DNA of 64,000 nt from an uncultured Acidobacteriota bacterium (GTDB lineage Bacteria > Acidobacteriota > Blastocatellia > RBC074): positions 2,368,001 to 2,432,000 of the forward strand of contig CAWCKY010000006.1 in NCBI GenBank assembly GCA_963796275.1, given 5' to 3'. Shown piece by piece: positions 15,062 to 29,908 of this stretch. Positions within the stretch are counted from its first letter, which is position 1; the number at the start of each line of letters is the position of its first letter. Both the position numbers and the translations under genes were made by a program. The notes under the pieces were generated by a model. The model was not told where the DNA came from. It saw only the letters and a list, made by a program, of their open reading frames with translations, and made no database searches.

Positions 15062-16424
15062 ATGAGAAAATCCCCCGCGTCCTTCGATCCCGCCACAGCC
15101 GGGATCGGTCATGAGCTTTACCGGATTCTGATGGAGAGTATAAATGAAGCCGTCTTTGTCATTGATCCTCACGACTTCAATCTTCTGGATGTGAATCAAA
15201 AGGCTGTCACGCTCTTGGGGTACTCGGTCGACGAGATGCTGGCCCTCGACATGGGCCGCCTTCTTCCCGAGCACGGTCTCCGACTGCGGGCCGCCGCCCA
15301 CAACGCCGAGCCGTTGATGATCGAGGAGGGACTGAGGGCGAAATGCGGAAGGGCCATCCCCTGCGCCCTGACCATTCGGGCCATCAACCATTCCGCTCGT
15401 CCCATGGCCCTCTTGATCGCCCGCGAATCGAAGGTGGAAGTTTGCCTCTCATCTATAAATCTTGCGGCGGGGCGCGAAGACCTCGTCGAAACGACGTTCG
15501 CTTTCCCAAGCATTATCGGGCAGAGCTCCCAGATTCGCCATGTTTGCCGTTTAATCGGGCTGGTGGCCCAAAGCGATGCCACGGTCCTCATCCAGGGCGA
15601 AAGCGGAACTGGGAAAGAGTTGGTCGCTCAGGCCATCCATTTTCATAGCCGTCGTGCGGAACGGCCCCTGATCAAGGTCAATTGCGCGGCGCTCACTGAA
15701 ACCCTGCTCGAAAGCGAATTGTTCGGTCACCGGAGAGGAGCTTTCACCGGAGCCATTCAAGATCGGAAGGGCCGGTTCAAGCTGGCTGACGGCGGGACCA
15801 TTATTCTGGACGAAATCGACAGTCTTTCACTTTCGGGCCAGGCCAAATTGCTGCGCGTTTTACAGGAGAGAGAGTTCGAGCCGGTCGGGGATGCCGCCAC
15901 GATCAAGGTCGACGTTCGCGTCGTCGCTGTGACCAATGCGGGATCTGACCGGGGCCATCGTCGCCGGCCGATTCAGAGAAGATTTGTATTACCGGCTCAA
16001 TGCTTTTCCGATCCGGCTCCCGCCGCTGAGAGAACGAAGAGATGATATTTCATCGCTGGTCAGCCATTTTTTGCGGAAATATTCAACCTCGCTCAGGAAA
16101 CAGATCGCCGACCTCGAGCTAGAGGCTCTGGCCATGCTCATGGACTATCCCTGGCCGGGCAATGTGAGGGAGCTTGAAAACACGATCGAATATGCCGTCA
16201 TCCTGGAGAGAGGGCGGAGCTTGAGCGCCGCCAGTCTGCCGGACAAACTTAAGCATGAGGAGAGACCGAACCACTCGCTGAAAGACCGCCTCGAAACCGC
16301 AGAGAAGCAGATAATCCTGGAGGCGTTGAGCATTACCAACGGAGTCAAGCAACGCGCGGCTGCGCTGCTCGGGATCGACCGCCGCAACTTCGGATATTTT
16401 CTCAATAAACATGGCATCAGGTAA
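15062..16424 (+). pseudogene. PAS-domain sigma54-dependent transcriptional activator (bEBP), split by a 1-nt insertion
   Basis: ORF1 has PAS, GESGTGKE, ESELFGH..GAFTGA and ILDEID. ORF2 continues DLTGAIVAGRFREDLYYRLN, WPGNVRELEN and a Fis-type HTH. One extra G at ~15938-15942 breaks the frame; it could be a sequencing error. Confidence 0.88.
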
Positions 16425-16452: not shown

Positions 16453-16851
16453 TTACTGATTGTGAAGTGGGGATTCCAGCAAATAGAGCAAATTTCGGGC
16501 GAAATCGGTCTTGATCAGGAATTGAACTCCGACGAGCGGCGGGGCGATCCGATCCCACGCGGGTTGATCTTCAGGCTCAATCATCAGAACGATCCTGGTG
16601 TTGTTAGATAACCTGGCGAGATCGGTAGCGAATTGCAGACCGGCGGCCAGCGGGGCGCCGGCGTCCACCACGATCGCGCCATACGAGGATCGGGCGATTC
16701 TCTCAATATCTGCCTGGGCAAAACCGCCCCTCTCCTCAATCTGTTGATAGCCGGCGGAGAGGAGAAGGTTGACGATCGCTTCGCGAATTTGCTCGTCCGG
16801 TTCGATAATCAAAATGGATTGGTGAAAGGTTGTTTTCTCATAGCTCACCAC
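16453..16851 (-). CDS. single-domain response regulator receiver-like protein
   Basis: ILIIEPDEQIREAIVNLL, IVVD, FLIK pattern. Confidence 0.7.
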   Translation of the reverse strand: MVSYEKTTFHQSILIIEPDEQIREAIVNLLLSAGYQQIEERGGFAQADIERIARSSYGAIVVDAGAPLAAGLQFATDLARLSNNTRIVLMIEPEDQPAWDRIAPPLVGVQFLIKTDFARNLLYLLESPLHNQ

Positions 16852-16940: not shown

Positions 16941-18494
16941 CTATCGCAGCGCTTCGGTCAGGAGTAGTTGATCGACCTGCAGTGTGATATGTAACCCGCT
17001 GTGCCGATGCAAAATTCCAACGAAACCGGTATCAGGTTCGACGCGAGTTGTGTCGCCGTTGATGCGCGCCACCACCTCATCCCCAAATCGCAAGACGGCA
17101 GTCGTTTGCCGGGTTCCTATTCTGATCAGATCGAGCTTCCACGTGACTGTTTTACCCAGTTCAATTTTTCCCTCGCCCACGTCGATTCTTTCCCTGAACA
17201 AGCCGTTCGCGCTTCGGATCCGAACTCCTGCCGCAAATTTCCCGCCTCCGATCTTACGCAGGCAGGCGGCGGCTATCAGATTGTTGCCCGCCAGGAAGGC
17301 GAGAGGATGAATTACCTGGTCTCTCCCCATCCCCAGTTCCGTGGGATTAATATCCGCCTCCAGACGCCAGGACATGCGGCGGGCAGGCAAGGCGAAGCTC
17401 AACCCCGCACGGATCAATCTCCCTGGCAAACTACCGAGGTCCTGACAGAGCATATCCACTGAACCGCTTAGAGGGTTGGTGTTATTTGCCTCGCAAACAT
17501 TGCCGGATAGGAGGATCAATTCCCAATCCTGCGGCGGAAATATCCGGTCTTCGAAATCTATATTGCTGTCGACGGGTTCTTCGCCGGCTTTGCGTTCGGG
17601 CAGAGGGAACTCAGCGCGCTCCAGTTTCCCGTTCTTAACATCCAGGATATTGAGTTTTACGAATTTTTCATCTTGTGGAATGTCCTTGACGAGCACTCCA
17701 TAGTGCAGTTCGAGCAATCCTTCTCCCTTCATATTGGATTTCTGGTACCCTTCTATGGCGATTCCGTCCTTGAAGGCTTTATCGTCTCCCTTATCGCTAT
17801 CGATGGTCGCCCGGTCATCGAAGTTGACGTGAATGCTACGGGGCGCGCCGCCGTCGCCTCTCAATTCCACTTCAACAGCCTGCAAATCGCCCTCCCGCCG
17901 GTCCAGGGCTTCAAAGAAGAGCCTGATCGCCCTTTTTTCAATACCGTTGTCGGAGTAGAAATTCGTACGGTCAAGACGGGGCGTTTTAAAGTTGGCTTTG
18001 TTGATGTACGGCAGGTAATGCAGAGGGTGAACGCTGCTATCCTGGTTGGCCTCCCCTTTCCTGAACTCCATGTGTAGATGGGGATATTCCGCATCTTCCT
18101 GACCCACCGCGCCGATCAGGTCGCCCTGGTTCACCTCTTTGCCGACGATTATTCCCTCCACGATGCTGTCGAGATGAAGATAGACGAGAAATAAGTCATT
18201 CTCCCCATCCGTCGGATCGACAGCTTGAATGATTATATGAGTGGAGCCGAATCCCCCATCCGCCGGGCCGGCGCGATGCACCACGCCACTCGCCATGGCA
18301 TAAATCGGCGTGCCAACAGCGGCAGGCAGATCTATGCCGTCGTGAAAGTCCCAGCGATCGGCGTCTATCCGCGGACCGAAGGAGGTGTTCATCTCGTCTG
18401 CCGCGAAGCTTTTGCTGAGGGGCCAGATGAAATGAGAGTGGCCTTGAGCACAGCCAGATACGTGATGACCATAGTCTCTTGTTTCGTTATCCAT
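16941..18494 (-). CDS. M23 family metallopeptidase with long C-terminal beta-rich domains
   Basis: HDGIDL, GTPIYAMASGVV, YLHL, PHLHME; AGGAGG RBS; no signal peptide. Confidence 0.88.
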   Translation of the reverse strand: MDNETRDYGHHVSGCAQGHSHFIWPLSKSFAADEMNTSFGPRIDADRWDFHDGIDLPAAVGTPIYAMASGVVHRAGPADGGFGSTHIIIQAVDPTDGENDLFLVYLHLDSIVEGIIVGKEVNQGDLIGAVGQEDAEYPHLHMEFRKGEANQDSSVHPLHYLPYINKANFKTPRLDRTNFYSDNGIEKRAIRLFFEALDRREGDLQAVEVELRGDGGAPRSIHVNFDDRATIDSDKGDDKAFKDGIAIEGYQKSNMKGEGLLELHYGVLVKDIPQDEKFVKLNILDVKNGKLERAEFPLPERKAGEEPVDSNIDFEDRIFPPQDWELILLSGNVCEANNTNPLSGSVDMLCQDLGSLPGRLIRAGLSFALPARRMSWRLEADINPTELGMGRDQVIHPLAFLAGNNLIAAACLRKIGGGKFAAGVRIRSANGLFRERIDVGEGKIELGKTVTWKLDLIRIGTRQTTAVLRFGDEVVARINGDTTRVEPDTGFVGILHRHSGLHITLQVDQLLLTEALR

Positions 18495-18585: not shown

Positions 18586-18885
18586 CTAGCACCAGAGATC
18601 CTGGATAAACTGGCTCTTCCCGCCATTCATGTCCCTGGGGCCGAATGGAATGAGACCTTCACCCGTCATTTTATCGGCAGCCTTGCCTTGATTGGCGTTT
18701 GCCACGGCATCCCACTTGGCTATGAAGTCCGAAACATCCCAAGTTGCTACGCTTGTCTCGGCGACGCCGAGATCATGGGACCACAGACGGCGCCGGAACT
18801 TTGTCACTGCTTCCGCGTCGTCGAGCATCACATGTTCAAATACTTCAGGCTGTACACCCCCAAATGTTCGGTCATAGATATACAT
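18586..18885 (-). CDS. 99-aa hypothetical protein (possibly truncated) with MYIYD leader
   Basis: ATG at 18885 gives MYIYDRTFGG, closely matching the N-terminus of 19974-21038. Confidence 0.55.
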   Translation of the reverse strand: MYIYDRTFGGVQPEVFEHVMLDDAEAVTKFRRRLWSHDLGVAETSVATWDVSDFIAKWDAVANANQGKAADKMTGEGLIPFGPRDMNGGKSQFIQDLWC

Positions 18886-18960
18886 AAGGTTTATCTTCGT
18901 TAGGCAGCCGACTGAGTACTTGGTCAGGCACCTTATCTGAACCGTGCGCAATAAAAGTTC

Positions 18961-19689
18961 TTATCTGAAAACCCATCGGAATTCTCGTATTTTGGGCTTC
19001 GGCTTATTCACAGTTGGATCTTCCTTCAGAAGTCTTAACCGCTGGAGGTCACTCAAGAACAGGCGTTTGTCGCTGTTTTCGAAATCGATATCGACGTGCA
19101 GCGGAAAAGGGTTTTTCATCAATCCTTGCGCACTGTGCTGTAAACGGTTGCCCAGATGGCCGATTTCGTGAGCTATCGTATTGACAAATGCACGCCACAG
19201 GTCGCCAGTGGCGCCGCCGGAAACCTGGTGCGTTTTGATGAATCCGACCTTTCTATATCCATCACCTGATGGAATTCCGCAGCCTAGGGTACCCATTTCA
19301 TCCCAACACGTTTTGGCAAGGTCGTAGAAATCCTGCCCCCGTATGGTTTTCGGAATCTTGTGTTGTGTCATTAGTTTCAGGATGGTCCCGGGGAGATGCT
19401 GCCTACCGAGTAAGTACACGGGAAAATCGAGTTTTCCAAACCCGCCCTTCTCGTCGTCGGAAGGTTCATTTGACCGGTATTGCGCCTGGAACCTGATATT
19501 CGCCTGCTTCAACCAGTTCGGATCCAGGTTATTGAACTTATCCTCCAATTTTGACCGGATCTCCTCGCGAAGCTTATGATCATTTTTAAAGATACCAGCC
19601 GGGTCGATAAGAATGATACGAACAAAATCCGGTTGTCTCGCTTGGGGCGGTTGCCCTAGCCGTTCATAAGCCCGAACATACATAGTCAT
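18961..19689 (-). CDS. zinc metalloprotease (metzincin/matrixin-like)
   Basis: AHEIGHLGNRLQH followed by a GLM Met-turn-like motif; GGAAGGA RBS. Confidence 0.75.
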   Translation of the reverse strand: MTMYVRAYERLGQPPQARQPDFVRIILIDPAGIFKNDHKLREEIRSKLEDKFNNLDPNWLKQANIRFQAQYRSNEPSDDEKGGFGKLDFPVYLLGRQHLPGTILKLMTQHKIPKTIRGQDFYDLAKTCWDEMGTLGCGIPSGDGYRKVGFIKTHQVSGGATGDLWRAFVNTIAHEIGHLGNRLQHSAQGLMKNPFPLHVDIDFENSDKRLFLSDLQRLRLLKEDPTVNKPKPKIREFRWVFR

Positions 19690-19716
19690 TGTCCTTCCCT
19701 CTCATAACTTGCCAGA

Positions 19717-19902
19717 TCACCTCGCCACGCAAATTGAGTCTGACTCGCATTTAACATGGAAGTCATAGCGCGCAGCGTCGATCCGCGGACCGAAAGAGGT
19801 ATTCATCCCATCTGCTACGAAGCTCTTGCGGAGGGGGCCAGGTGAAATGTGAGTTGCTTTGACCGCAACCAGATACTTGCTGACGATAGTCTCTTGTTTC
19901 AT
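19717..19902 (-). pseudogene. truncated, frameshifted copy of the 5' end of the M23 gene
   Basis: PLRKSFVADGMNTSFGPRIDAARYDFH vs PLSKSFAADEMNTSFGPRIDADRWDFH; DNA similarity of ~19755-19915 to ~18342-18508. Confidence 0.85.
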
Positions 19903-19973
19903 TACTCAATCTCCTCTGACGAAGGCTGCATTCCAGGCTGGCGCGAGAACTAATGATCGGATGTTCAAACTGA

Positions 19974-21038
19974 TCAAGGCCACTTCTTCACTACCTCGTC
20001 GATCACTCGATAGACGTTGATGACATCGCCAATCACGTCGGGGTTGGCGTCCGGATAGTTTTGCCATACTGCGACGAAAGGAACGCCATTGCGGTCAAGG
20101 AAGGCGCCTTCAGATTTCACGGAACTCACCTTGGCATCTACGCTGGGATGGTGACCCACCTTGGCACCCTTGCTGGTGAAGGAGAGCGTATTCGCATTCG
20201 TCGCCAGCGAGAGCCAGGAGCCGCCTCTGGACATGATTTCCATCATCTCCCGGCTGCTCGCCTGATCGACGAGCGTCCCGCGATGCATCGCCGCGAATAG
20301 TCTGGCCATGGCAAGTGCAGTCATGGCCGCCGATGACTTACCATTAGTGTCGACGGGAACATGGAACTGCTTCCAACCGCCACCGAGGTCGTTGGCGTAC
20401 CAGATGCCTCTCTTTGATTTCGGATCGAAGAATCTACCAGCGGTAAGGGCACCGTTCACGTAACTGTAACCAAGACGGCGCATACAGTTGCGCGCCGCCC
20501 AATCCTGCAGCTGATCTGCAAAGATGGCATCGAGATCTGCGCGATGCTGTTGCTTGAAGTCGAATTTGAGCACTCCGGAATCGCTCGTTGCGGCAATCCT
20601 CAATGTCTCGTCGATATTCATCTTCTTCCAGGGGCCGTCAGGAATCGACGGGACGGCCGCTGCGACCGCGGCAAAGAAGGGCTTCCAGTCCCAAGCTACG
20701 GTCGGAGCCAGGTTGTTGAGCCGTGCACGCAGTTCGAAACTCGCATACAACAGCGCCACCTTAAGAAGGCTGGCGGAGAAGAGCATGTGATTCTCTTTTT
20801 CGCCGGCATACCTCAAGGGATTTCCGCCGGTCCCTAGCTTTGCGATAGCGAACGCGACCTTTTCCAATCGTTGTTGATCTTTCAGACTCAATGTTCTCTT
20901 CACGGCGCGGATGGCTTCGGTCAGGTCCTTCGTGCGGGTTGGGTCGGAGACCATCTGTGGGCCATACGCCCGGTTGGCGAACGGTTCGACGGCCGACAAG
21001 CTTCCCAACCCTTGAAATTTACTATCGTAGATGAACAT
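19974..21038 (-). CDS. serine beta-lactamase/PBP-fold hydrolase
   Basis: SASLLK (SxxK), TALAMARLF, AKVG (KTG-like); no clear SxN motif; no signal peptide. Confidence 0.72.
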   Translation of the reverse strand: MFIYDSKFQGLGSLSAVEPFANRAYGPQMVSDPTRTKDLTEAIRAVKRTLSLKDQQRLEKVAFAIAKLGTGGNPLRYAGEKENHMLFSASLLKVALLYASFELRARLNNLAPTVAWDWKPFFAAVAAAVPSIPDGPWKKMNIDETLRIAATSDSGVLKFDFKQQHRADLDAIFADQLQDWAARNCMRRLGYSYVNGALTAGRFFDPKSKRGIWYANDLGGGWKQFHVPVDTNGKSSAAMTALAMARLFAAMHRGTLVDQASSREMMEIMSRGGSWLSLATNANTLSFTSKGAKVGHHPSVDAKVSSVKSEGAFLDRNGVPFVAVWQNYPDANPDVIGDVINVYRVIDEVVKKWP

Positions 21039-21060
21039 ACGATTAACCTTCGATGATTGG

Positions 21061-22425
21061 TCAGGGCCTCACGCCTTGCCTTTGCTCCAGCGTAAGCCCA
21101 TTCTCAAGAAAGCTAACAAAATGATCGACGACCTTCTCCATCTCCGGAGAATCTTTCTCGATCATCTTATCTACTCGCGCACGTTTGATTGGTTCGGGCC
21201 CCTGATATAATTGACCGTTAAACCGCAAATAGATCAAATATTGATTGGTGTAATAGGCGATTGTTTGCCGAGCCTGCTTGGAGAGCTTGGGAGTCTGCTG
21301 ACCTGGAATTAGCGCTAGCTCCGCGATGCCTCTTTCGTTCCTCGAGTTAGCAATGAATTCGTGAAATCGGCGAAGGCTTTTCTTACCATAATATGCATTA
21401 AGATTCTCTGCTAAAGAACGTGAGTGATCGTAGGCGCTTCCGACATTAATCCCGTCGATATCTCCTATTAAATCAGATCGACTTGCCTCCTTCACGAGGT
21501 AATACTCGAGTGTGAGCGGATCATGTTTGTCTATAGCGTTCCCGGCTTTGTCGGTCGCCAGCCAAAAATGCCGGATAAAAGCATGGAGGGCGCTACCCAG
21601 ATCACCCGACCAAGTTACGATTAAATCTGGTCGGTGTGGTTTGGGCAATTGTTGATCCTGATCAGGCTTCTGTTTTGGCGAGCCTTCAATTCCACAAAGG
21701 ACATGCCCTATTTCAAGCAGTTCTCCATTATCATAGAGTATTTTGTAGAGTCGGAGCCGCTCTTCTGCGGGGCTATGAAGGGCAAAAAGCGGGCTCACAT
21801 TCCGGTGTCGATACAAGACGATATTGAATGGTCCAATAAATTGCGGTTCTCTGGGGCCGCCATGGTATATCTTCCTCACCGAGGCCAAAAAATGTAAATG
21901 GGTCTGCCATGCAGGGCGAGCCTTTTCCTCGCGGTCAACGATTGCCAGGAATCCGGCTAGATCGATTAGCTCCACTACTGCTTTGGCCACGACACTCCCA
22001 CCGTTTTTGATTCCCACTGTCACTTGTACTGTGAGATGACGAACTAAGTAAGGCTTGTAGCTCATCCAGGTGGATGTGATGAATGACCCATCTTGATTGA
22101 TAGGAACAGCACCGCCGCCAGTTATCGCGATCGGCCCACCGACCCCAACATGAGCCTCGGCCTTAGCCAACGGCCAGCGACTATGATCTAGCCCGTAACT
22201 GTAATTCCGCCGGGTTCCTGCTCCGTCAATTTGAACCCTCCCGCTTAGTTTCACCGATCCGTTATATGACGACGGCGGTGTTCTGAAGAATCCCTCGTAC
22301 TGTCCGCTACTACTCCTGGTCAAGGTAATCTCGGGAATTCCATCGATCTTGAGCTTGTCGAGAGTGAGCACTGGCGATAATTGGGGTCCTTCTCCTATTT
22401 TCGTTTCGTTAACTCGTATATACAT
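21061..22425 (-). CDS. hypothetical 454-aa protein: beta-rich N-domain plus helical domain with candidate catalytic H/D residues
   Basis: Long ORF with GGGAGG RBS; EIGHVLCG, TWSGDLG and DLIGDIDG motifs. Confidence 0.75.
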   Translation of the reverse strand: MYIRVNETKIGEGPQLSPVLTLDKLKIDGIPEITLTRSSSGQYEGFFRTPPSSYNGSVKLSGRVQIDGAGTRRNYSYGLDHSRWPLAKAEAHVGVGGPIAITGGGAVPINQDGSFITSTWMSYKPYLVRHLTVQVTVGIKNGGSVVAKAVVELIDLAGFLAIVDREEKARPAWQTHLHFLASVRKIYHGGPREPQFIGPFNIVLYRHRNVSPLFALHSPAEERLRLYKILYDNGELLEIGHVLCGIEGSPKQKPDQDQQLPKPHRPDLIVTWSGDLGSALHAFIRHFWLATDKAGNAIDKHDPLTLEYYLVKEASRSDLIGDIDGINVGSAYDHSRSLAENLNAYYGKKSLRRFHEFIANSRNERGIAELALIPGQQTPKLSKQARQTIAYYTNQYLIYLRFNGQLYQGPEPIKRARVDKMIEKDSPEMEKVVDHFVSFLENGLTLEQRQGVRP

Positions 22426-22537: not shown

Positions 22538-23191
22538 CTACTTCGCTACGTGGATGTGGTCTCGATGTGCGTTGAGTAACTTGTCTGAAATCGCTTTATG
22601 CGGTCCCTCGCCTCGCGTCCACGGCCCGAACAGTTGCACCGGATAACCTTTCGGCTGGGCCCATCCCCCATGGGCTTGCAGGGCCTTATAAAGTTTGTGG
22701 CCCAGATTGCGTTTCTTCTCCTCCTCGACCAACCGCGCGCGCGCTTGCGGGTTGGTTACAGCCTTGGCTTTGCGCATCGCGTGGTTCCATTCGTGCGCCC
22801 ATTGGCCGATGCCTTTGCCGCCGACGGCGTAAATGTCTGCTGCGCGTCCGAAACGGTGCAGCCCCAACGTGCCGCGTTTGAGAGAGACGGTTAGCAATTG
22901 CTCGGCGCTGAATCCGTTCGATTGTGCGAATTGCTCCAGGGCCTTGCTCAACTCGCTCGCCAGCGGTGGCGTGACGAGCGATTCCTGGACCGGCGAAACC
23001 ACACGATAGAACTGGCCATTCGGGATCGGTTGCAAGTTGCTTGTCTCAGCGCTCTCCGGTTGCTGCGGAGGTAAGATCGGCACTTGAGTCTGCGCGGGAG
23101 GATGCTTCAGACGAAAGAGACGTACGGGGCGCAGACGCGCCATCCGGCCATCCGGCGTTCTGACCACTCGTGAAGGTGCCCGGCGTTTCAT
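22538..23191 (-). CDS. M15/extensin-like C-terminal (LAS-type) zinc peptidase
   Basis: LHRFGRAADI (H-x6-D) and LFGP...NAHRDHIHV (HxH); ATGA-coupled to the upstream gene; Arg/Pro-rich N-terminus. Confidence 0.7.
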   Translation of the reverse strand: MKRRAPSRVVRTPDGRMARLRPVRLFRLKHPPAQTQVPILPPQQPESAETSNLQPIPNGQFYRVVSPVQESLVTPPLASELSKALEQFAQSNGFSAEQLLTVSLKRGTLGLHRFGRAADIYAVGGKGIGQWAHEWNHAMRKAKAVTNPQARARLVEEEKKRNLGHKLYKALQAHGGWAQPKGYPVQLFGPWTRGEGPHKAISDKLLNAHRDHIHVAK

Positions 23192-23727
23192 CTTACGTTT
23201 CTACCTCCGAAGATTTCGTTGTACCAGTAACGCCCCAGGATTCGACCGGCGAAGGAATTGATCGGATAGTTAGCCAGATTGCTGATCGAGCGATTCCTGA
23301 GAACAAACTCGACTTTGGCGTTTTCGTCGAGCCGCACTGCCACAGGCAGGCAGTTGCAACCCCACGGATTGATGATTCTCTCCAGCCTTGTATAAGGAAA
23401 GAGGGGTTTATCATTTTGCAGAATCAACCACTCGAATCCTGGCGTCTCGATTTGCGAGTTGTCGCGCGCGTAAAGATCGGTGAATTGCGCGAAATGAGTC
23501 AGCACGCCGCAATATTGCGGATGAAGTTGAAAACTCGCCAGCACTACCTGCTCGCCTCGCGGCGGCAGATTTTCGACCGGTTTTAAGGGATCGCGGAACT
23601 GTGCGAACGGGTCAGTCTCGCAAGCATCCAGCGCGATACCGATCGATCCGCTAACATCGAAATATTCGGCGTCGAGAGGGATACCGCAGATCACACAGGA
23701 ATTGTTGTTCGACGTTTTCGCAATCAT
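23188..23727 (-). CDS. hypothetical beta-sandwich protein, putative minor capsid/penton-like
   Basis: Alternating beta-strand patterns (VVLASFQL, FEWLIL, VAVRLDENAKVEFVLRN, FAGRILGRYW); N-terminal CVIC. The fold is inference. Confidence 0.55.
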   Translation of the reverse strand: MIAKTSNNNSCVICGIPLDAEYFDVSGSIGIALDACETDPFAQFRDPLKPVENLPPRGEQVVLASFQLHPQYCGVLTHFAQFTDLYARDNSQIETPGFEWLILQNDKPLFPYTRLERIINPWGCNCLPVAVRLDENAKVEFVLRNRSISNLANYPINSFAGRILGRYWYNEIFGGRNVR

Positions 23728-23730: not shown

Positions 23731-25053
23731 TTATCCCGGAACCCGGCCCGTGCCGAGCATTTTGTAACCCTGCAAAACCAGGGAGAGCGTACCCGCGGGG
23801 CCGGAGAGTTCTTCGACCTGAATGCGGACCGAAGATTTGGGCTCTGACATGAACGGCTTGGCAAATGGCCGGAACGGGCGGTCGCCATTGGCGACGCCGA
23901 GCCCGGCAATGTTGTGAATCGGCTTGCTCTGGTATTCGCGCCCCGTGCTGCTGACATCAAGGCTGTAGAGAAAACTCACCTCTTCCGCAGCCACAGCGCC
24001 GGTTTCGAAGATTCTTCCCAGGGTCCCGCCGGCGACTTGATCGATCGCCAGATTGGCCGCGATGAGGCCGTTCGCTTCGGGATTGAGTTTAAACCCGCGC
24101 GTCAAATCCACTCCGCTCCTCTCCAGTCCGGCGGCTAAGGCTCCCAGCGAAATATTTGACAGTCTCACGCGCGGGATGTCGAAGACGCTGAAGGCGACGC
24201 CTAGAAGGCTCGAGGGCGAGAGACCGGTGATAAGCAGATCGCCCGGTGAGAGCAGGCCGCCGAGTTCTACCAGCTTGCCAGAAGCTGTAGCGCCTGTGGC
24301 GAATTGGAAAGGCTTATCCAGTAAAGCCGACTTTCGAATCGAGGTGCTTCCATCACTCTTCAACACGGTGAGATCAACCAGGCTGTTTTGTGAACCGTAA
24401 ATATGTACACGGTCAGTGCCTGCTGACGGCAATTGTTTGGTGGTTGGATCCGGGCCAATCACTGGCGTCATGAGTGTCGAGGCGTTCAAGGGACCTATCT
24501 CCAACTGTTGGGTGAACAGGTTATTGGTTCGATCCCAGAGGAGAAACCGGCTCTCGGGGGAGATCACCGGGACCTCCTCAGTTCCTTCCAAAACCAGAAG
24601 TAGAGTGCCATCCGATCCGATCGTCCCGCTCGTCAAAATTCCAGGCAGGGTGTTTTCGAGAACTGCGATGCCTGTGGCAGGTGGGTCGTCGAGAAGCACC
24701 AGGGCGATATCTGCGCCGGGGGCGCTGGTGATGAACAACTTGTTGATATTGCCGTTCGAAAAGAATGGGACAAAAGAGGGACTTCGCAAAAGCGTATTTT
24801 GGTTGATCACCGGCCCGAAAGTGCGCGGCGTTTGGCGTTCATCCAAGACGAGGCTATAGCCGACCGACAAGGCCACGAAGACGCCCTCGGTGCTGATCTC
24901 TACGACATCCTGCACCTTGTTGCCGCGCTGCCCCAGGAGCGTGAATTGAAAGACATAATCGAAAGGGATCGTCTTCACCGCGGGCGGCGCGTTCGTGCGA
25001 ACGGCGCCGCGTTGGGGGACCGCTCTCGGATTGGGATAACCGAATTGGCTCAT
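23731..25053 (-). CDS. putative jelly-roll structural protein with ~270-aa insertion (spike-like)
   Basis: N-part IPFDYV...GVFVALSVGYSL and C-part TGREYQ...GDRPF...QGYK align with both halves of 25101-26513. Confidence 0.6.
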   Translation of the reverse strand: MSQFGYPNPRAVPQRGAVRTNAPPAVKTIPFDYVFQFTLLGQRGNKVQDVVEISTEGVFVALSVGYSLVLDERQTPRTFGPVINQNTLLRSPSFVPFFSNGNINKLFITSAPGADIALVLLDDPPATGIAVLENTLPGILTSGTIGSDGTLLLVLEGTEEVPVISPESRFLLWDRTNNLFTQQLEIGPLNASTLMTPVIGPDPTTKQLPSAGTDRVHIYGSQNSLVDLTVLKSDGSTSIRKSALLDKPFQFATGATASGKLVELGGLLSPGDLLITGLSPSSLLGVAFSVFDIPRVRLSNISLGALAAGLERSGVDLTRGFKLNPEANGLIAANLAIDQVAGGTLGRIFETGAVAAEEVSFLYSLDVSSTGREYQSKPIHNIAGLGVANGDRPFRPFAKPFMSEPKSSVRIQVEELSGPAGTLSLVLQGYKMLGTGRVPG

Positions 25054-25100: not shown

Positions 25101-26513
25101 TTAACGAAGAATCTTGTATCCCTGAAAGACCAGGAAGAGACGGCCCCTTCCGAAGATCTCTTCCACCTGCACGCGAATGGTCGAACGCGGCAGAAATGTC
25201 ATCGGTTTATGGAAGACCTTGAATGGGCGGTCGCCGTTGGCGATGCCGAGGCTGGCGACGTTGAAGGCGCGCTGGCTCTGCAACTCGCGGCCGGTTCCCG
25301 TGTCAATGATTGAATAGAGGAACCGAACCTCCTCCGGACGGTTCACGCTCTGGAACAGTCGCCCCAACAAATCCCGGCTCACCGTATTCAACTGGCCGCC
25401 GGCGGAGAAGGCGAAGCGCACGCGTAACGGATCGAGCCGGATCCCGTCGAAGAGGGATTGTACGGGTTTGATTTCTCTTAGTTTGATTTCGCCCAGTTTG
25501 AATACATCCGGATTGACCGGGTCCGGTTGGGAGTCGATCTCGATCCTGGTGTCGCCTGCGTCCAGGCTGTAGCCTACCGCCGTCGCGACATAACCTCCGT
25601 CGACATTGATCGGAACTTCGTCTTCGAGGATGTTTCCCGGTTGCCCGGTCAAATCGAGCGTCGAGACATAATCGAACGGCACGATGCGCGTCGAGGGCGC
25701 GTCGTGCTCAATCGCCTCGCCGAGCGGCCGATAGTTGCCCGTTTCGTGATCGTAGACCGGTATCTTCTTGATCGGCTCGAACTCCGCCAGCCGCCGAGTC
25801 TCTTCTTCCGCCGCCCCCGCCAGGCCGAGCACTTTGTATCCTTGCAGCGTGATGAAGAGCCTGCCCGTTACACCTGCCGTCCGCTCTTCGATCTGCAATC
25901 GAATCGTCGATCGTGGCAGGAAGACCATCGGCTGCGGCAGCATTTTGAACGGCCTCCGCCCGTCGGCGCGGCCCAGCGTCGCCAGGCTGTCCACCGGCTT
26001 GTTCTGCAACTCGCGGCCGGTTCCGGTGTCGACCAGGCTGAGCAGGAAGCTGAAATTGTCCACCGGCTTCAATCGCTGAAAAAGCTTTTGCCTTAGCTCC
26101 TGGTTCAAAGGCAAACTTGCATTCAAGCCGCCATTTTCCGATATGAGAGCGCGCAAGTTCGGATTTAGTCTGAACCCTTCGATCAGCACATCGGGGGGCA
26201 GGTTTGCTAGCTTGACATCGCCGAGGGTGGCCAGGGTAATCGGCGTGGCTGTGGTGTTAGTGGCTGGGGAGGGAACCAAGTCGACCTTCTCTGCGCGCTC
26301 TTCCGCCAAGCCGTAGCCGACGGCTGTAGCGACGAAGACGCCTTCGGCGCTGATGTTGATCACGTCCTGAACGAGGTTGCCGACCTCTCCCCTGAGCGTG
26401 AAGTCGGCCACGTACTCGTAGGGGATGACGCGCGCCGCCGGCGCGCTATGCGACTGTTCGCGACCGAACGAATTGGCGCCCCTCGGCGGATTGGGCTGAG
26501 CCATGCGGTTCAT
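25101..26513 (-). CDS. putative structural protein with tandem duplicated jelly-roll-like domain
   Basis: Two internal copies of P(Y/F)xYV...VATAVGY.L...DTGTGRELQ...G.RPFK...FLPRSTIR.Q.EE...GRLF...QGYK. Confidence 0.65.
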   Translation of the reverse strand: MNRMAQPNPPRGANSFGREQSHSAPAARVIPYEYVADFTLRGEVGNLVQDVINISAEGVFVATAVGYGLAEERAEKVDLVPSPATNTTATPITLATLGDVKLANLPPDVLIEGFRLNPNLRALISENGGLNASLPLNQELRQKLFQRLKPVDNFSFLLSLVDTGTGRELQNKPVDSLATLGRADGRRPFKMLPQPMVFLPRSTIRLQIEERTAGVTGRLFITLQGYKVLGLAGAAEEETRRLAEFEPIKKIPVYDHETGNYRPLGEAIEHDAPSTRIVPFDYVSTLDLTGQPGNILEDEVPINVDGGYVATAVGYSLDAGDTRIEIDSQPDPVNPDVFKLGEIKLREIKPVQSLFDGIRLDPLRVRFAFSAGGQLNTVSRDLLGRLFQSVNRPEEVRFLYSIIDTGTGRELQSQRAFNVASLGIANGDRPFKVFHKPMTFLPRSTIRVQVEEIFGRGRLFLVFQGYKILR

Positions 26514-26608: not shown

Positions 26609-27508
26609 CTATTGCACGTCGCGCGTCATGTACCCATCGAGGACGACCCAAATGAAGAGCGGCCCATAGAGTCTTTGCAGATCGCTCAGCACTTCGCTCT
26701 CCGGTACTTCGATCTCGACGCGGAAGTTCTGTTGCGCATCGATTTTCACCGCCTCGGCGAAACGAAAGGTCGCTTGTGGACTCGGATAGCCGTGCGTCGT
26801 GACCCTGCCGTCCTCCGAATATGGGCCGGCGCCGGCGGGGAAGAACCACGTCGGAACCTGAATCATGATCTTCTCGCCGACGAAGAAGGTGGTGACGGTG
26901 TTATAGATGAACTTGCCGATCAGCCCGCCGAAACCATTATTAGGGAAGATCTGTTCTTTCGCCGGAATGATATCTTTCCCGAACTTATCCACCGCCTCTT
27001 TCAATGTCGTGCGGGTGATCTCGGCCAATTCATCCGGGGCCAGCGGCTGCGTTGTTGTGTCCGGTGGGATCGCCGTGACTGTCAGACCGAGATTCTCCAA
27101 CGCGTCGAGTGACAGCCGGAGCGCCTTTATCTCCGAGCTCTCAACCCGGCGTGTGAACTCCACGAAATGCGTCAGCTTGAAGTTGCTCAGCTCCACTTTC
27201 CTATTGCCCACTGGTTGCCCGGCGCAGTCGACGACAACTACTTCGAGTTTGATGGTAGCGCTCTCAGAGACCACCGACGGCAAATCCGAGATCACCACCC
27301 GCAGCGCATGCGCCTCAAAAGTGTTCCAGTGCGGCAACAACGACGCAGCCTGCATGTTCGTCAACAACTTCGTCTTTCCCGTTACATCCTGAAAGAACCG
27401 TAAAACGTTGGATGTGAGAATCTCGCCCAATCTTCTCCCCGGTTTGATTGCGACAGCATCATATAACTGCTGATGTACTAGCTCTCTGACTCCTTTGACG
27501 ACAGCCAT
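26609..27508 (-). CDS. putative major capsid-like (jelly-roll) protein
   Basis: Strong AGGAGG RBS. QLYD..LRFFQ..GKT..TNM...LP...F...ALRV and FPAG.G...G.P...QQNFRVEI...WVVLDG..RDVQ resemble, from memory, MCPs of uncultured tailless phages/proviruses; not verified by search. Confidence 0.55.
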   Translation of the reverse strand: MAVVKGVRELVHQQLYDAVAIKPGRRLGEILTSNVLRFFQDVTGKTKLLTNMQAASLLPHWNTFEAHALRVVISDLPSVVSESATIKLEVVVVDCAGQPVGNRKVELSNFKLTHFVEFTRRVESSEIKALRLSLDALENLGLTVTAIPPDTTTQPLAPDELAEITRTTLKEAVDKFGKDIIPAKEQIFPNNGFGGLIGKFIYNTVTTFFVGEKIMIQVPTWFFPAGAGPYSEDGRVTTHGYPSPQATFRFAEAVKIDAQQNFRVEIEVPESEVLSDLQRLYGPLFIWVVLDGYMTRDVQ

Positions 27509-27525: not shown

Positions 27526-28392
27526 CTACCAGAGCGGTTGAAACCAACCGCTGCGGGATTTGGATTGTTCTTCCGCAGGGCGGATGTTTTCGCAGGTCGG
27601 GTTGATTGTCCTCGGACGCTGGTAACCCTCGACGCCGTTGATGTTCTCCAACGGTACGACCCGCGGGTTGATCTCCCGCTCCCGCACATAGCCTTCGACA
27701 GGGGCTTCCGCGAAATAACCCATCTCCGGCGCATTACCGTAACCCATCACTTCTGGCGCTTCGCCGTAGTAGCCCATTTGATCGGGCGCTTCGGCGTAAT
27801 AGCCCATCTGATCGGGTGCTTCATAGACATAACCCATGGCTTCCGGTGCCTCTGCGTAATAGCCCATCTGATCGGGCGCTTCCGCGTAATAGCCCATTTG
27901 ATCGGGCTGTTGATAGACCTCGTTGACGCCGGCAAATTCCGGAGCTTCGGCGTAATAGCCCATCGTCTGTGGCACCTCATAGACGTAACCGACTTCCGGC
28001 GCCTCCGCGTAGTAACCGGTGCCTTCGACAAAACCCGGTGGCGGATCGGCGATATAGCCCATCCCGTGAGGCGAGCCATAACCGGAAACCTCCGGCGATT
28101 CGTAGATGTAACCGACCGTTTCCGGCGCTTCGCCGTAATACCCGACGTTCTCCGGCGCCTCGTAAACGTAGCCTACATTTTCCGGTACTTCATAAACGTA
28201 ACCGAGAGGCTCCGGCGCCTCGTAGACATAGCCCATCTGATCAGGCACTTCAGCGAAGTAACCCGAGATCGTGGGAGCCGGGCATCTACGCTTTCTCGCT
28301 CCTGGCTTGGGTATTGGATAGAACCGCATGCGTTTTCCTCCTTGCTGTGGTATTGGATTGACAATCATGATTTCATCGAAATGGCCTGCCAT
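27526..28392 (-). CDS. acidic Tyr/Gly/Glu/Pro-rich decapeptide-repeat protein
   Basis: AGGAGG RBS before ATG 28392; ~18-20 copies of (M/V/L)GY(Y/V)(A/Y)EAP(D/E)x. Confidence 0.85.
   Translation of the reverse strand: MAGHFDEIMIVNPIPQQGGKRMRFYPIPKPGARKRRCPAPTISGYFAEVPDQMGYVYEAPEPLGYVYEVPENVGYVYEAPENVGYYGEAPETVGYIYESPEVSGYGSPHGMGYIADPPPGFVEGTGYYAEAPEVGYVYEVPQTMGYYAEAPEFAGVNEVYQQPDQMGYYAEAPDQMGYYAEAPEAMGYVYEAPDQMGYYAEAPDQMGYYGEAPEVMGYGNAPEMGYFAEAPVEGYVREREINPRVVPLENINGVEGYQRPRTINPTCENIRPAEEQSKSRSGWFQPLW
27700..28270 (-). repeat. coding 30-bp degenerate tandem repeat
   Basis: Recurring TAATAGCCCATCTGATCGGGCGCTTC-like units that vary mostly at synonymous positions. Confidence 0.9.
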
Positions 28393-28403
28393 ATTCTGCC
28401 TCC

Positions 28404-28718
28404 TCATCCTTCAATCCCGCGCTTTGTCACCCGGTATCGACCGCCGATGATGTATAACCGCCTGCCTGTCGGATCGGCGGCCAGGACGGGAAATTGCTGC
28501 TCGAAGAAATGAACATAGTTCTGCGGAACTTCTCCGGGCGCGCGGCTGGCACGATAGATCACTCCGCGCAGTTCTCCGAGCGGCATTAACGGCGGCGCCA
28601 ATCGGATTATCCGCAGACGCCTGGTCTCGCATGCGCAACCCGAACCGCATCCGCAGGACGAGCCACAGGCGCAATCCGAACCGAATTGTGGTTGGGAACA
28701 ACCGCAAGCACACGACAT
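28404..28718 (-). CDS. 104-aa protein with Cys-rich N-terminus and small beta domain
   Basis: AGGAG RBS before ATG 28718; 9 Cys in CxC motifs; LGELRGVIY...YVHFF...LYIIGGRYRVTKRGIEG. Confidence 0.75.
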   Translation of the reverse strand: MSCACGCSQPQFGSDCACGSSCGCGSGCACETRRLRIIRLAPPLMPLGELRGVIYRASRAPGEVPQNYVHFFEQQFPVLAADPTGRRLYIIGGRYRVTKRGIEG

Positions 28719-28728
28719 GACTCGACTC

Positions 28729-29310
28729 CTAGCGGAACCTCCGAACTGGAGCGCCCGGCGGCGCCGGAGCGGCTGGCTGCGGCGCGACTGTGCCCGGCTG
28801 CGCCTGGACCCCTTTTCTCGCCCCACGGCGGCGGCGAGGCCGAATGACGACCGGGATGCTCATCCAGACCGGGCGCAGGTATTGCTTGACCTGACCTGAT
28901 TCGCCGATCCCTTCAACGACTTCATAGAGTTGCCCGTCAGGCGCCTGCATTATTCCGTCCTCCGCGCCTGCCAGCCCAGCCTTTCCGAGGATGCTGCAGA
29001 GCTTGGTCCCGATTTGGTAGACCGGCTTCAGCTCCACGCTCTGTTCGGCACATGGGGCTAACTTGGGCAGGCCCTGGCAGAATCCCTTGACGGCCCCTCT
29101 CACTTGTTCGATCACCGGCCCGATCCCCGGGATGAATTTGACGGCTTTGCCGGCCAGTTTCTTGATCCCTTTCCAGAAGCCGATGTCGTTCCCCAGGCCA
29201 TCGACACCTTCCACCCATTCGTATAGCTGTCCGTCCGGTCCCGGGCGGACTTCGCCAACATAGTTGCCGATCCCCAGGACCTGTGTCGTCTCGTAAGATG
29301 CAAAAGGCAT
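28729..29310 (-). CDS. 193-aa protein with duplicated PDGQLYE motif, amphipathic helix and basic tail
   Basis: AGGAG RBS before ATG 29310; PDGQLYEWVEG and PDGQLYEVVEG; GFWKGIKKLAGKAVKF; RPRRRRGARK. Confidence 0.8.
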   Translation of the reverse strand: MPFASYETTQVLGIGNYVGEVRPGPDGQLYEWVEGVDGLGNDIGFWKGIKKLAGKAVKFIPGIGPVIEQVRGAVKGFCQGLPKLAPCAEQSVELKPVYQIGTKLCSILGKAGLAGAEDGIMQAPDGQLYEVVEGIGESGQVKQYLRPVWMSIPVVIRPRRRRGARKGVQAQPGTVAPQPAAPAPPGAPVRRFR

Positions 29311-29320
29311 AAGTCTTCTC

Positions 29321-29848
29321 CTAATCAACCGGAAAATACTGTTTGTGATCTGCCGGCGGCGCCCAACCCATCGAGCGATTGACCGTTGCATCGAGCGGAA
29401 TCCACCGACCTTTGTAAAAAACTTCGAGATAGATATGCGTGAATAACTTCTTCTTCATTGGATTGAATCCAACGAGTACCAGGCGCACCGGATGGCCGAT
29501 AGACTTGAGCATAGAGGAAAGAAGGATCGTCATATCGTCACAATCGCCTGCGCGCAACTCCAGCATCCGTCTCGCCGTGTGTAGAAGCTCGACACGATGA
29601 ATATCCCGCGTGTATCGAACATTGCGTCTCACCCACTCGAAGAGGGCGTGGATCTCCCCCAGATAGTTTTTCGGCCGGATGTCGCATTGGCGCAGAATCT
29701 CGATCGCCGTTTGCCGAACGCCAAAGTCTTTTGCGCCTGCCCTGACCAGATGCGCAATCAACTCGACGGTCTTGATTGTTCCCGGATAGCCTTTGGGGAT
29801 CCGGCCGATGAAGATACGGGGCTGTGTTGAATTCGAGCATTTGTGCAT
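29321..29848 (-). CDS. transglutaminase-like (papain-fold) cysteine protease/transglutaminase
   Basis: VRYTRD, GDCDD (Cys), THIY (His), WIPLDAT (Asp). ATG 29848 with GAGAAGG RBS is preferred over TTG 29908. Confidence 0.85.
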   Translation of the reverse strand: MHKCSNSTQPRIFIGRIPKGYPGTIKTVELIAHLVRAGAKDFGVRQTAIEILRQCDIRPKNYLGEIHALFEWVRRNVRYTRDIHRVELLHTARRMLELRAGDCDDMTILLSSMLKSIGHPVRLVLVGFNPMKKKLFTHIYLEVFYKGRWIPLDATVNRSMGWAPPADHKQYFPVD

Positions 29849-29892: not shown

Positions 29893-29908
29893 GCAACTGG
29901 AATGCCAA
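29893..29908 (-). promoter_or_regulatory. sigma54 (-24/-12) promoter
   Basis: Minus strand TTGGCAT-TCCAG-TTGC with exact GG-N10-GC spacing, ~45 bp upstream of the first operon gene. Confidence 0.75.

Follow-up and report, generated by a model that had tools for sequence, protein, structure and literature searches.

Why should four neighboring bacterial genes that encode unrelated proteins begin with much the same 10 to 13 amino acid residues? The genes lie on the minus strand of the 64,000-nucleotide stretch of DNA analyzed here (the window), and an operon of nine conserved minus-strand genes (g01 to g09) lies 5′ of them. The four proteins start with MYIRVNETKIGEG, MFIYDSKFQGLG, MYVRAYERLGQ, and MYIYDRTFGG, each at the position given in an earlier note on this DNA, and the two closely matching pairs described there correspond to two leader types that recur at other loci: type A (consensus M-Y-(I/V/L)-R-x-x-E-G-L-G-Q-x-P) and type B (M-Y-I-Y-D-x-K-F-S-G-x-Q), with A or S inserted after Met in some tags. 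Specifically, i) g10 (454 residues, 21061..22425) starts MYIRVNETKIGEGPQ at 22425, and its leader MYIRVNETKIGEG (22387..22425; 6.1 bits with the leader matrix described below) is type A with one extra residue; ii) g11 (354 residues, 19974..21038) starts MFIYDSKFQGLGSL at 21038, and its leader MFIYDSKFQGLGS (21000..21038) is type B with F for Y, close homologs beginning MYIYDRKFSGAQ or MYIYDRKFQGLG; iii) g12 (240 residues, 18961..19683) starts MYVRAYERLGQPPQ at 19683, the second ATG of ORF 18961-19689, and its type A leader MYVRAYERLGQPP (19645..19683) is the closest of the four to consensus; and iv) g13 (99 residues, 18586..18885) starts at 18885, the first ATG of ORF 18586-18951, with the type B leader MYIYDRTFGGVQP (18847..18885). 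A Shine-Dalgarno-like purine-rich stretch precedes all four starts and is clear in every case but 18885, where it is weak.

The bodies behind these leaders are as unrelated as had been claimed, an all-against-all BLASTP search among g09 to g14 giving nothing below E 0.9. The g10 protein matches no Pfam family, and elsewhere its body forms the C-terminal module of fusions with lysozyme, amidase, VanY, M35, subtilase, and GDSL domains; g11 has a Beta-lactamase2-like serine hydrolase body (PF13354, E 5.5e-7); g12 has a zincin-like body (HEIGH) with weak Reprolysin matches under the Pfam cut-off; and the g13 body belongs to no assigned family. They are thus operon-end enzymes (beta-lactamase-like, zincin-like) and unassigned bodies, and we reject a reading of these "tail proteins" as parts of a phage tail. 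The next gene, g14 (16941..18494, minus strand), encodes an M23 peptidase with a 350-residue C-terminal extension and no MY leader, and is conserved downstream of the cargo genes, with 61-85% identity, in four other loci (L007, L021, L025, and L042); a family of ~470-residue proteins in other loci also lacks the tag. Between g11 and g12 are the remains of a second M23 gene.

Is the resemblance among the four leaders more than chance? In-frame ATG starts of the form M[YF][IV][YR] with at least 80 residues remaining number 44 over the two strands of the 9.46 Mb genome; the 3.8 kb that hold these genes contain 4 of them, a clustering beyond chance. A weight matrix trained solely on leaders from other loci was run over 63,394 genomic in-frame ATGs; the 19683 start scored highest (18.1 bits), and that at 18885 came third (11.3 bits). 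The shared leader is real; the g10 and g11 leaders, one with an extra residue and the other with F for Y, score low (~6 bits), and the same scan revealed no convincing orphan tag elsewhere in the genome. Of the 35 proteins behind the logo and the matrix, 11 were chosen by eye, outside the blind procedure that follows.

All enrichment counts come from one blind ORF procedure (pattern ^M[AS]?Y[IVLMF]) applied to genome and metagenome loci, which are not independent of each other and include the near-duplicate metagenome pairs L074/L075, L085/L086, and L058/L081. Downstream of the core, the pattern heads 24/63 same-strand ORFs in genome loci and 30/82 in metagenome loci (54/145 in total, or 37%) but none of the opposite-strand ORFs (0/25 and 0/26; 0/51 in total); corresponding counts are 2/62 and 1/66 for upstream ORFs, 2/146 and 8/360 within the core, and 36/7024 for ORFs of the whole genome. 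At least one tagged ORF was found in 25 of the 31 loci whose downstream sequence extends for 2 kb or more. A strict type A DNA pattern has two matches in 0.86 Mb of operon loci, both of them cargo genes, and none in 400 other genomes of the phylum, all of which also lack g06. The strong enrichment beside the operon in other genomes, and the absence of the strict pattern from those 400 genomes without it, decide the check that the earlier note had proposed in favor of its leader. Literature searches turned up no description.

The tag is conserved as protein rather than as DNA. Among 39 leaders, positions that played no part in their selection are conserved (R4 in 17, E7 in 18, L9 in 13, G10 in 16), and the codons vary synonymously (Tyr2 is TAC in 36 and TAT in 29, with mixed codons at positions 3 and 4), so the tag is no RNA element; an SD-like 4-mer lies upstream of 46/65 tagged genes. 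Synonymous freedom bears on the proposal that the tag is a degron or a translation-initiation feature which holds dangerous enzymes low until the operon fires. The extreme N-terminal position of the tag would suit such an element, as would retention of the initiator Met when position 2 is Tyr (MetAP specificity), but codons this free argue against an RNA element, a degron need be neither unique to the neighbors of one operon nor echoed ~20 times in a core protein (see below), and we regard the proposal as very improbable. To the notion that the shared start is a functionless relic of common descent or of cassette recombination junctions we give almost no credence: cassette turnover is indeed visible in the second M23 gene, but the protein is conserved and the DNA is not, the tag persists in loci from several phyla whose core proteins are just 38-45% identical, both tag types are found on one body family, and purifying selection on the tag codons is already suggested.

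That body family is g12. The tag is present on 43/65 g12 homologs (and on 4 more after allowing for the called start), type B as well as type A, and 13/65 carry another tag, M.ERLRFEREL. Among g11 homologs, 10 of the 31 fetched begin MYIYD..., the others having an acidic and PG-binding N-terminus, a hydrophobic signal-like N-terminus, or none of these. Homologous bodies elsewhere thus bear other N-terminal modules, making the tag modular, and neither alternative tag (M.ERLRFEREL or acidic) appears in any of 96 related loci. Across the same 96 loci g01 to g09 are kept and the genes downstream of the core are wholly replaced; none of the four tail genes of the window has a tblastn homolog in any of them, so the tag is retained while bodies are swapped. 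Between tag and body, residues 13-45 form a linker enriched in P (11.7% vs 7.1% in the remaining protein) and G (10.9% vs 7.7%). Pfam families could be assigned to 18/35 tagged proteins, 13 of the 18 being cell-wall hydrolases or binders; overall the cargo consists mostly of peptidoglycan hydrolases (amidases, peptidases) or binders, with proteases and a phospholipase. Three or more different N-terminal tags on the same enzyme bodies suggest that polymorphic lytic enzymes are addressed through a broader, as yet undescribed code of short tags.

One tag heads unrelated enzymes in the window and changing cell-wall-degrading enzymes beside the operon in many other bacteria, so its most likely role is to direct them to a structure that the operon builds. 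We therefore favor, as the probable explanation, a system-specific docking or address tag through which swappable cargo would join a capsid-like assembly.

Could the tag instead send these enzymes out of the cell? It is no Sec or Tat signal peptide, in agreement with the earlier note: hydrophobic core and twin-Arg are both absent on direct reading, none of the four N-termini or of 65 related ones contains a hydrophobic stretch, and Pro and Gly abound in residues 13-45. Double-glycine leaders, which span 15-30 residues ending in GG, GA, or GS and are cut by an ABC exporter with a C39 domain, are also rejected; the operon encodes no ABC transporter or C39 domain, and the tag is shorter, with a variable residue after Gly. 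An export or secretion signal for an unrecognized route might still be imagined, with the jelly-roll proteins in or accessory to a release device, or with exit by lysis and the machine encoded elsewhere. Cargo that acts on the cell envelope yet carries neither signal would be so explained, and the same bodies elsewhere do bear a signal-like hydrophobic N-terminus (P0136) or other tags, as polymorphic secreted effectors do. But Pfam, NCBIfam, PHROGs, and PADLOC reveal no membrane protein, ATPase, or known secretion component in the conserved operon, nor is any route visible there by which peptidoglycan enzymes would reach the periplasm; the tag is found solely beside the operon (in this genome, 96 loci, and 400 genomes); and leader-like repeats in a core protein make little sense for an export signal. 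We consider export unlikely.

What, then, does the operon encode? Its nine genes specify a transglutaminase-like protein, a Tyr-rich repeat protein, three jelly-roll proteins (g05, g06, and g07), and others, with more than 1000 homologs, all annotated "hypothetical". The first gene, g01 (29321..29848), whose true start is probably MHKCSN rather than the TTG at 29908, matches Pfam Transglut_core (PF01841) above the family cut-off at E 3e-13; a G-D-C-D-D stretch is invariant and a His conserved in 28 homologs, and the protein has the Cys-His-Asp core of the transglutaminase-core superfamily. By sequence it is thus transglutaminase-core-like (a Cys-protease fold), with a putative role in cutting or cross-linking, and every complete locus opens with it. 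The tag might accordingly be a g01 recognition site, either a propeptide cut near Gly or a cross-linking handle, and such a role could add to docking. The place of g01 at the head of each complete locus, its invariant motif and Pfam match, and the small-residue turn that ends the tag (G10 in 16/39) before the linker all speak for this; against it, the residue after Gly varies (Q 6, G 6, L 5, and others among 39 leaders), leaving no fixed Gln and no obvious scissile bond or cross-link site, and we judge it improbable.

The next two genes are g02 (28729..29391; 220 residues), whose conserved YEWVEGVDGLG motif the earlier note linked to the leader but which falls below background with the leader matrix, and g03 (28404..28826), a small Cys-rich (CxCGC) protein conserved in its C-terminal half by comparison across loci. 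The echo is found instead in g04 (27526..28407; 293 residues, rich in Tyr, Glu, and Pro), where the note had also seen it: ~20 repeats of (M/V)GY(V/Y)(Y/A)E(A)PE and a C-terminal GYVRERE read as leader-like units, the leader matrix gives matches of 13.6 and 12.5 bits that are equaled by 0.2-1% of 2000 composition-preserving shuffles, and 18/33 g04 homologs contain at least one matrix match. The g04 repeats therefore resemble the tag beyond composition. Past the jelly-roll genes come g08 (23188..23727; 179 residues), conserved across loci, and g09 (22538..23191; 217 residues), the last conserved core gene, whose HxxGxAxD...HxH pattern we take to suggest a LAS-type peptidase, without a supporting database match.

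The jelly-roll proteins are the candidates for a shell. The best conserved of the core proteins, g06 (25101..26513; 470 residues), contains an internal repeat (24-230/272-469) and, in a model of moderate confidence, two tandem jelly-roll domains in one chain. Foldseek returns 97 matches at E ≤ 0.001, headed by the coat proteins of PBCV-1, iridovirus, and STIV and by D13, the AF2 model matching PBCV-1, STIV, and D13 at E ~1e-6. Model quality is mediocre (pLDDT 61, pTM 0.43), however, TM-scores against double jelly-roll coat proteins are 0.15-0.26, and the single-domain Z-scores of up to 9.5 are shared with non-capsid jelly rolls (nucleoplasmin, GOLD domains). For g05 (26609..27508; 299 residues), modeled as a jelly-roll-like sandwich with an inserted domain, the Foldseek matches are weak and nearly all viral coat jelly rolls, the best falling under significance (E 2.8e-3, Z 6.7). 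In g07 (23731..25053; 440 residues), N- and C-terminal parts homologous in sequence to one g06 jelly-roll domain flank a variable insert of ~220 residues. These models are consistent with an operon that may build a closed capsid-like shell or particle.

A sigma-54-type -24/-12 element, TGGCATTCCAGTTGC (29893..29907, minus strand), precedes g01, and such an element is unique and lies just upstream of g01 in 7/17 loci. A receiver-domain-like gene (16453..16851, minus strand) closes the operon; in other loci the gene at the homologous position is followed by a sigma-54 activator.

A tag that is conserved as protein, confined to the neighborhood of one operon, modular, and mirrored in g04 leads us to infer physical docking and its likely receptor as follows. 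The activator would switch on the whole unit; tagged proteins, consisting of tag, flexible Pro/Gly-rich linker, and any of many unrelated bodies, would be made in the cytoplasm without export signals and docked onto an assembly of g05, g06, g07, the repeat protein g04, g02, g03, g08, g09, and the transglutaminase-like g01. The tag would likely bind a site on a jelly-roll protein as a short beta-strand and Gly turn, and the ~20 g04 repeats would bind the same site repeatedly, as scaffold or competitor. Cargo genes would be exchanged as cassettes, the tag preserving their fit with the invariant core. More tentatively, we can picture a domesticated jelly-roll "capsid without a genome" in several phyla, the encapsulin counterpart from the other great virus-coat lineage, which would be fired by sigma-54, scaffolded by the protein with ~20 motif copies, loaded through the tag with swappable enzymes (peptidoglycan hydrolases, proteases, and lipases), and released as a particle that carries them for killing or lysis; were this so, the M.ERLRFEREL and acidic F.FE tags would mark sister systems still unfound.

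If the tag is an address, it provides a handle on a widespread gene system whose homologs lack functional annotation, its cargo can be listed from sequence alone as an arsenal against cell envelopes, and the 12-residue peptide could be fused to reporters for finding and purifying the assembly. A jelly-roll cargo carrier, if true, would be a second independent cellular use of virus-coat architecture beside the HK97-fold encapsulins, and would bear on the exchange of jelly-roll proteins between cells and virus coats.

Among known systems, the nearest in function are the cargo peptides of encapsulins and bacterial microcompartments (BMCs), where, as here, a short terminal peptide and flexible linker on unrelated enzymes beside shell or shell-candidate genes, and not the body, define membership. 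The likeness to encapsulins (short terminal peptide and linker, unrelated cargo, restriction to shell-encoding loci) is a functional analogy only: g05 and g06 model as jelly rolls, no encapsulin or HK97 family is found by Pfam, NCBIfam, or PHROGs, and an encapsulin cargo-loading peptide is rejected. Unlike those systems, the shell candidates here are neither HK97-fold nor BMC-fold, the tag sits at the exact N-terminus with a different consensus, the cargo degrades envelopes rather than comprising metabolic or iron/redox enzymes, and several shell-like paralogs accompany a transglutaminase-like protein. The carboxysome protein CsoS2 is a repetitive disordered scaffold with many copies of a short shell-binding motif, and g04 would be its counterpart. 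PVC/eCIS and polymorphic effectors (MIX, FIX, LXG) are likewise variable, cassette-like, often lytic, located downstream of a conserved structural operon, and marked by an N-terminal element, and the bodies of polymorphic effectors, too, are reused elsewhere with other trafficking modules. But where those effectors have a disordered region of 50 residues or a folded domain, this tag is a defined ~12-residue motif, and a PVC/eCIS leader is rejected: in g01 to g14, Pfam, NCBIfam, and PHROGs detect no family for a sheath, a tube, a baseplate, VgrG/PAAR, or an ATPase, and both modeled core proteins are jelly rolls. Unlike tailless viruses, the operon has no FtsK/HerA-type packaging ATPase, polymerase, or other virus gene (Pfam, PHROGs) and no relative among the 2.9 million contigs of IMG/VR; it occurs in chromosomal contexts with a sigma-54 promoter and regulator; and sequence identity across phyla is 60-90%, unlike that of fast-evolving virus coats. 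With the double and vertical single jelly-roll coats of those viruses (PRD1, PM2, STIV, P23-77, PBCV-1) and with the vaccinia scaffold D13 it shares the two tandem jelly rolls of g06, whose best Foldseek matches they supply, and the further jelly-roll proteins g05 and g07; at its trimer axis, moreover, D13 is known to bind a short peptide from the N-terminus of a partner protein.

The four genes that carry the shared N-terminal tag of 10-13 residues (g10-g13) belong to one tightly packed series on the minus strand, running from ~29.9 kb to 16.5 kb and comprising g01 (transglutaminase-core-like; PF01841, E 3e-13), g02 (220 aa), Cys-rich g03 (28404-28826), g04 (293 aa, made of (M/V)GY(V/Y)(Y/A)E(A)PE repeats), g05 (299 aa), g06 (470 aa), g07 (440 aa), g08 (179 aa), g09 (217 aa), the tagged genes themselves, g14 (an M23 peptidase), and last a receiver-domain-like gene. 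Within this row only g01, g11 (Beta-lactamase2, E 5.5e-7), and g14 pass a curated threshold of Pfam, NCBIfam, PHROGs, or PADLOC, with the M23 gene as the sole PHROGs match and PADLOC returning none; g09 has no match among PDB sequences; and the nearest ESM Atlas clusters of g05 and g08 are unnamed hypotheticals, mostly viral-labelled, with low recognition scores that make them a lead only. A sigma-54-type element, TGGCAT-N5-TTGC, lies directly upstream of g01 (29893-29907, minus strand); in 7 of 17 related loci a -24/-12 element before g01 is the sole such site on its strand, and in other loci the unit is closed by sigma-54 activator and receiver genes. A sigma-54-activator-like gene in the window (14999-16424, plus strand) consists of two overlapping ORFs, 14999-16045 and 15936-16424, possibly reflecting a frameshift or sequencing error.

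All four tagged N-termini lie exactly where the earlier note placed them, and its two further statements stand as well: the bodies are non-homologous (no pair falls below E 0.9 in BLASTP), and the two closely matching pairs of leaders are explained by two recurring flavours of tag, type A, MY(I/V/L)RxxEGLGQxP, and type B, MYIY(D/N/S)x(K/R)(F/L)SGxQ. The pattern proposed there, M[YF][IV][YR], occurs 44 times on both strands of the 9.46 Mb genome when an in-frame ATG and at least 80 remaining residues are required, and 4 of these occurrences fall within these 3.8 kb.

The gene neighborhood is widespread. Scoring of 8000 candidates yielded at least 1005 homologs of g06 at E <= 0.001, with identities of 60-90% across Blastocatellia, Poribacteria, KSB1, and others; not one of the 1005 bears a functional name. 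We compared 96 related loci, 19 from genomes and 77 from metagenomes. The order of g01-g09 is conserved in the fetched loci, while tblastn found no homolog of g10, g11, g12, or g13 in any of the 96, and we therefore regard the region after g09 as a variable cassette zone; the M23 gene is the only downstream gene of the window that recurs (in L007, L021, L025, and L042). A 61-aa ORF in the gap between g11 and g12 (19717-19902, minus strand) shares 22 of 27 identities with g14 residues 25-51 (E 2e-14) and looks, judging by this alignment, like a relic of a second M23 gene, which points to cassette insertion or turnover. Despite their differing bodies, genes of the variable zone in other loci have a common beginning: MYILEREGLED, MYIRAIEELG, MYILTREGLG, MYIRIPEGLGQ, MYVRTRDQLG, MYLRTREGLGQ, MYIYRSRLSG, and MYIYDHNLSGAQ, or, with a small residue inserted in the tag, MAYLRDAQGLAG and MAYIYFPERKEG.

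Several other features of these loci deserve mention. A family of ~470 aa without Pfam match or MY tag directly follows g09 in many loci (L010:14024-15427, L012:13977-15419, L043:4764-6194, L083:3964-5370, L085:10658-12049, and others) but not in the window; HMM and phmmer searches without a match rule out g10 as a diverged member. A SAM-dependent methyltransferase gene recurs downstream in more distant loci (L009:19591, L046:17853, L059:6748, L085:15735, L092:14935, L094:15439). Directly after leaders of the MAY form there is often a CxCGC-rich stretch resembling the Cys-rich part of g03 (L010:19857, L016:14981, L017:15115, L018:15223, L046:16255, L074:15407, L085:13474). Finally, proteobacterial and Vicinamibacterales records (L020-L022, L095-L098) contain a minimal form of the operon with one ~200-aa jelly-roll protein and no match to g04 or g09, in which g02-like genes bear GYVRE/GYVRD and the downstream genes keep the MY tag.

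To count tags blindly, we took ORFs of at least 100 aa, chosen greedily by length, and called a tag wherever ^M[AS]?Y[IVLMF] began at an ATG no more than 30 codons from the first start. Tagged ORFs made up 24/63 of those downstream on the same strand in genome loci and 30/82 in metagenome loci; the corresponding figures were 0/25 and 0/26 downstream on the opposite strand, 2/62 and 1/66 upstream, and 2/146 and 8/360 within the core, against 36 of 7024 ORFs in the whole genome. At least one tagged ORF was present in 25 of the 31 loci having at least 2 kb after the core (mean 2.1). These counts are lower bounds, because some "untagged" enzymes start MGY.. or MYEY.., or have a miscalled start; nor are all of them independent, a few of the metagenome loci being near-duplicates of one another. 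Several of the core matches are g01 itself, often starting MY.C. As a separate observation, many g01 homologs start MY(I/T/L/M)C.. or MYLRPQ (L004:6012, L007:5563, L010:4914, L011:5235, L022:6548, L034:1510, L054:5257), and the window g01 starts MHKCSN.

A weight matrix built solely from the leaders of other loci scored each of the 63,394 in-frame ATGs in the genome. g12 came out on top (18.1 bits) and g13 in third place (11.3 bits); between them ranked a Met that lies inside an ORF, 237 codons from its start. No convincing orphan tagged gene emerged. The MYVRNFGNGFG / MYVRNYGDNFE pair on contig C4 scores below 8 bits; the paralogous 166-aa ORFs there (28380-28880 and 33985-34485 (-)) start MYVRNYGDNFELDWQ and MYVRNFGNGFGLPWQ. 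A strict type A DNA pattern (M-Y-[FLIMV]-R-x-x-[DE]-x-L-G-Q), insensitive and hence a coarse test, matches once in this genome, at g12, twice in 0.86 Mb of operon loci, both times in cargo genes, and never in 400 other genomes of the phylum, all of which also lack g06; the outcome agrees in direction with the enrichment in operon-carrying genomes that the earlier note anticipated.

The same bodies occur elsewhere with other heads. Among the 65 g12 homologs listed, 43 have the tag at the start (4 more if a miscalled or GTG start is allowed), 13 have another N-terminus, M.ERLRFEREL..L, and some combine a type B tag with a thioredoxin domain. MYIYD(R)KFSGAQ, with a linker of as many as 50 residues behind it, begins 10 of the 31 g11 homologs fetched (of 46); in others the N-terminus is an acidic F.FE stretch together with a PG-binding domain, is hydrophobic and signal-like, consists of other domains, or is missing. 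The body of g10, with 103 representatives, occurs as the C-terminal module in large proteins containing GH25, Amidase_2/3, VanY, M35, subtilase, or GDSL domains, and shorter relatives begin with the MY tag (2 of 68 looked at) or the RFEREL tag (6 of 68). Both alternatives, M.ERLRFEREL and acidic, are absent from all 96 loci, so that the head of a given body varies with its context, and the neighborhood of this operon uses the MY head alone. The bearers of M.ERLRFEREL..L are P0190, P0191, P0200, P0208, P0210, P0213-P0217, P0220, P0223, and P0227 among g12 homologs and P0239, P0240, P0246, P0267, P0268, and P0271 among g10 homologs, one of them labelled Methanoperedens; the acidic third head, F.FE..FE, is found on P0123, P0233, and P0241. 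Neither 400 genomes from the phylum nor IMG/VR yielded a g12-family gene that would show the context of M.ERLRFEREL, and partner systems were found for neither this head nor the acidic one.

Thirty-nine leaders (35 from other loci, 11 of these picked by eye, and the 4 in the window) define the anatomy of the tag. Positions on which no selection was made are conserved: R4 in 17, E7 in 18, L9 in 13, G10 in 16, and P13 in 10. Tyr2 is encoded by TAC in 36 and by TAT in 29 of 65 distinct tagged genes, and synonymous codons are likewise mixed at positions 3 and 4, indicating that the constraint acts on the peptide. A Shine-Dalgarno-like 4-mer upstream in 46 of the 65 makes the tagged starts credible. 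Compared with the remainder of the protein, residues 13-45 contain more Pro (11.7% vs 7.1%) and Gly (10.9% vs 7.7%) and fewer large hydrophobics, a composition that fits a linker. The M[AS]Y form accounts for 4/39 leaders in the group of loci with at least 55% identity and 8/18 in the group below 50%, and the g04 repeats are MGY/VGY in the former and YGY in the latter; this is suggestive of tag flavour co-varying with core subfamily, although such labels are shared among relatives and we do not count it as evidence.

Pfam families could be assigned to 18 of 35 tagged proteins, and 13 of the 18 belong to families that hydrolyze or bind the cell wall (Amidase_2 with Golvesin_C, Peptidase_M15_3 + PG_binding_1 + 3D, Peptidase_M74, Amidase_6, Extensin-like_C, OmpA, and PG_binding_1); the others are three proteases (two Trypsin_2 and one Aspzincin_M35), one patatin phospholipase, and one DUF3238 protein. 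The window set (one beta-lactamase-like and one zincin-like protein, two unknowns, and then the M23 peptidase) fits the envelope-enzyme cargo seen elsewhere, and no member of it has an export signal.

In the core, g06 is internally duplicated, and its AF2 model, of moderate quality (pLDDT 61), consists of two beta-sandwiches. At the head of its 97 Foldseek matches to the PDB (E <= 0.001) stand the double jelly-roll coats of PBCV-1, an iridovirus, vaccinia D13, and STIV (E 2e-6 to 2e-5), with probabilities up to 0.99, yet with TM-scores of only 0.15-0.26. With an independent aligner, each half matches single jelly rolls at Z up to 9.5, among them virus coats as well as nucleoplasmin and GOLD domains, and the g06 profile gave only chance-level matches to PDB sequences (E >= 0.48). 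g07 has one g06-type domain split by a variable insert; the g05 model (pLDDT 77) is a jelly-roll-like sandwich whose best structural matches, though below significance, are nearly all virus coat proteins. No g06 relatives were found in IMG/VR and no virus genes alongside the operon. We read the core as capsid-like building blocks that the cell assembles under regulation, and which may form a closed shell.

Of the two resemblances between tag and core noted earlier, that to the (M/V/L)GYxY repeats of g04 survives, the leader matrix matching them at 13.6 bits (YVYEAPEPLGY) and 12.5 bits, and that to YEWVEGVDGLG in g02 does not, the motif being leader-like neither by the matrix nor by shuffles. 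Scores of at least 12 bits occur at 104 of 2.88 million positions genome-wide; 2000 shuffles of g04 residues reached the maximum in 1% and the double match in 0.2%; 18 of 33 g04 homologs have at least one match of at least 10 bits; and near their C-terminus is a conserved GYVRE(R/S)D, mirroring MYVR..E. In g06, the matrix also matches the strand that opens the second jelly roll (YVSTLDLTGQP, 13.2 bits, 0.75% of shuffles), of which YVADFTLRGE and YVFQFTLLGQ are paralogous strands. As a lead rather than a result, the tag may mimic or pair with this strand. A complex prediction with g06 (59-row alignment) and the 36-residue leader region (49 rows), run twice without controls, scored 0.00 each time and speaks neither for nor against the lead.

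We propose that the tag is a docking peptide that would couple any downstream enzyme cassette to a site on the jelly-roll assembly, and that multivalent g04 would occupy the same site. What the analysis shows is that the tag exists, is conserved, specific, and modular, precedes a linker, and resembles g04; that it binds, which protein receives it, whether a shell is built, and what becomes of the cargo are parts of the proposal. Rival readings take the tag for an export signal, a site at which g01 processes or cross-links its bearers (possibly besides docking), a degron, or a relic. No description of the operon or tag was found in the full-text literature searched, and papers beyond it may exist; in PMC8812541, DUF2961 is a different cellular double jelly-roll family, described there without such a neighborhood. 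What appears to be new here is the components and the motif; the tagging logic is already known, since encapsulins, microcompartments, and contractile injection systems likewise have exchangeable cargo that bears a terminal tag and is encoded next to structural genes.
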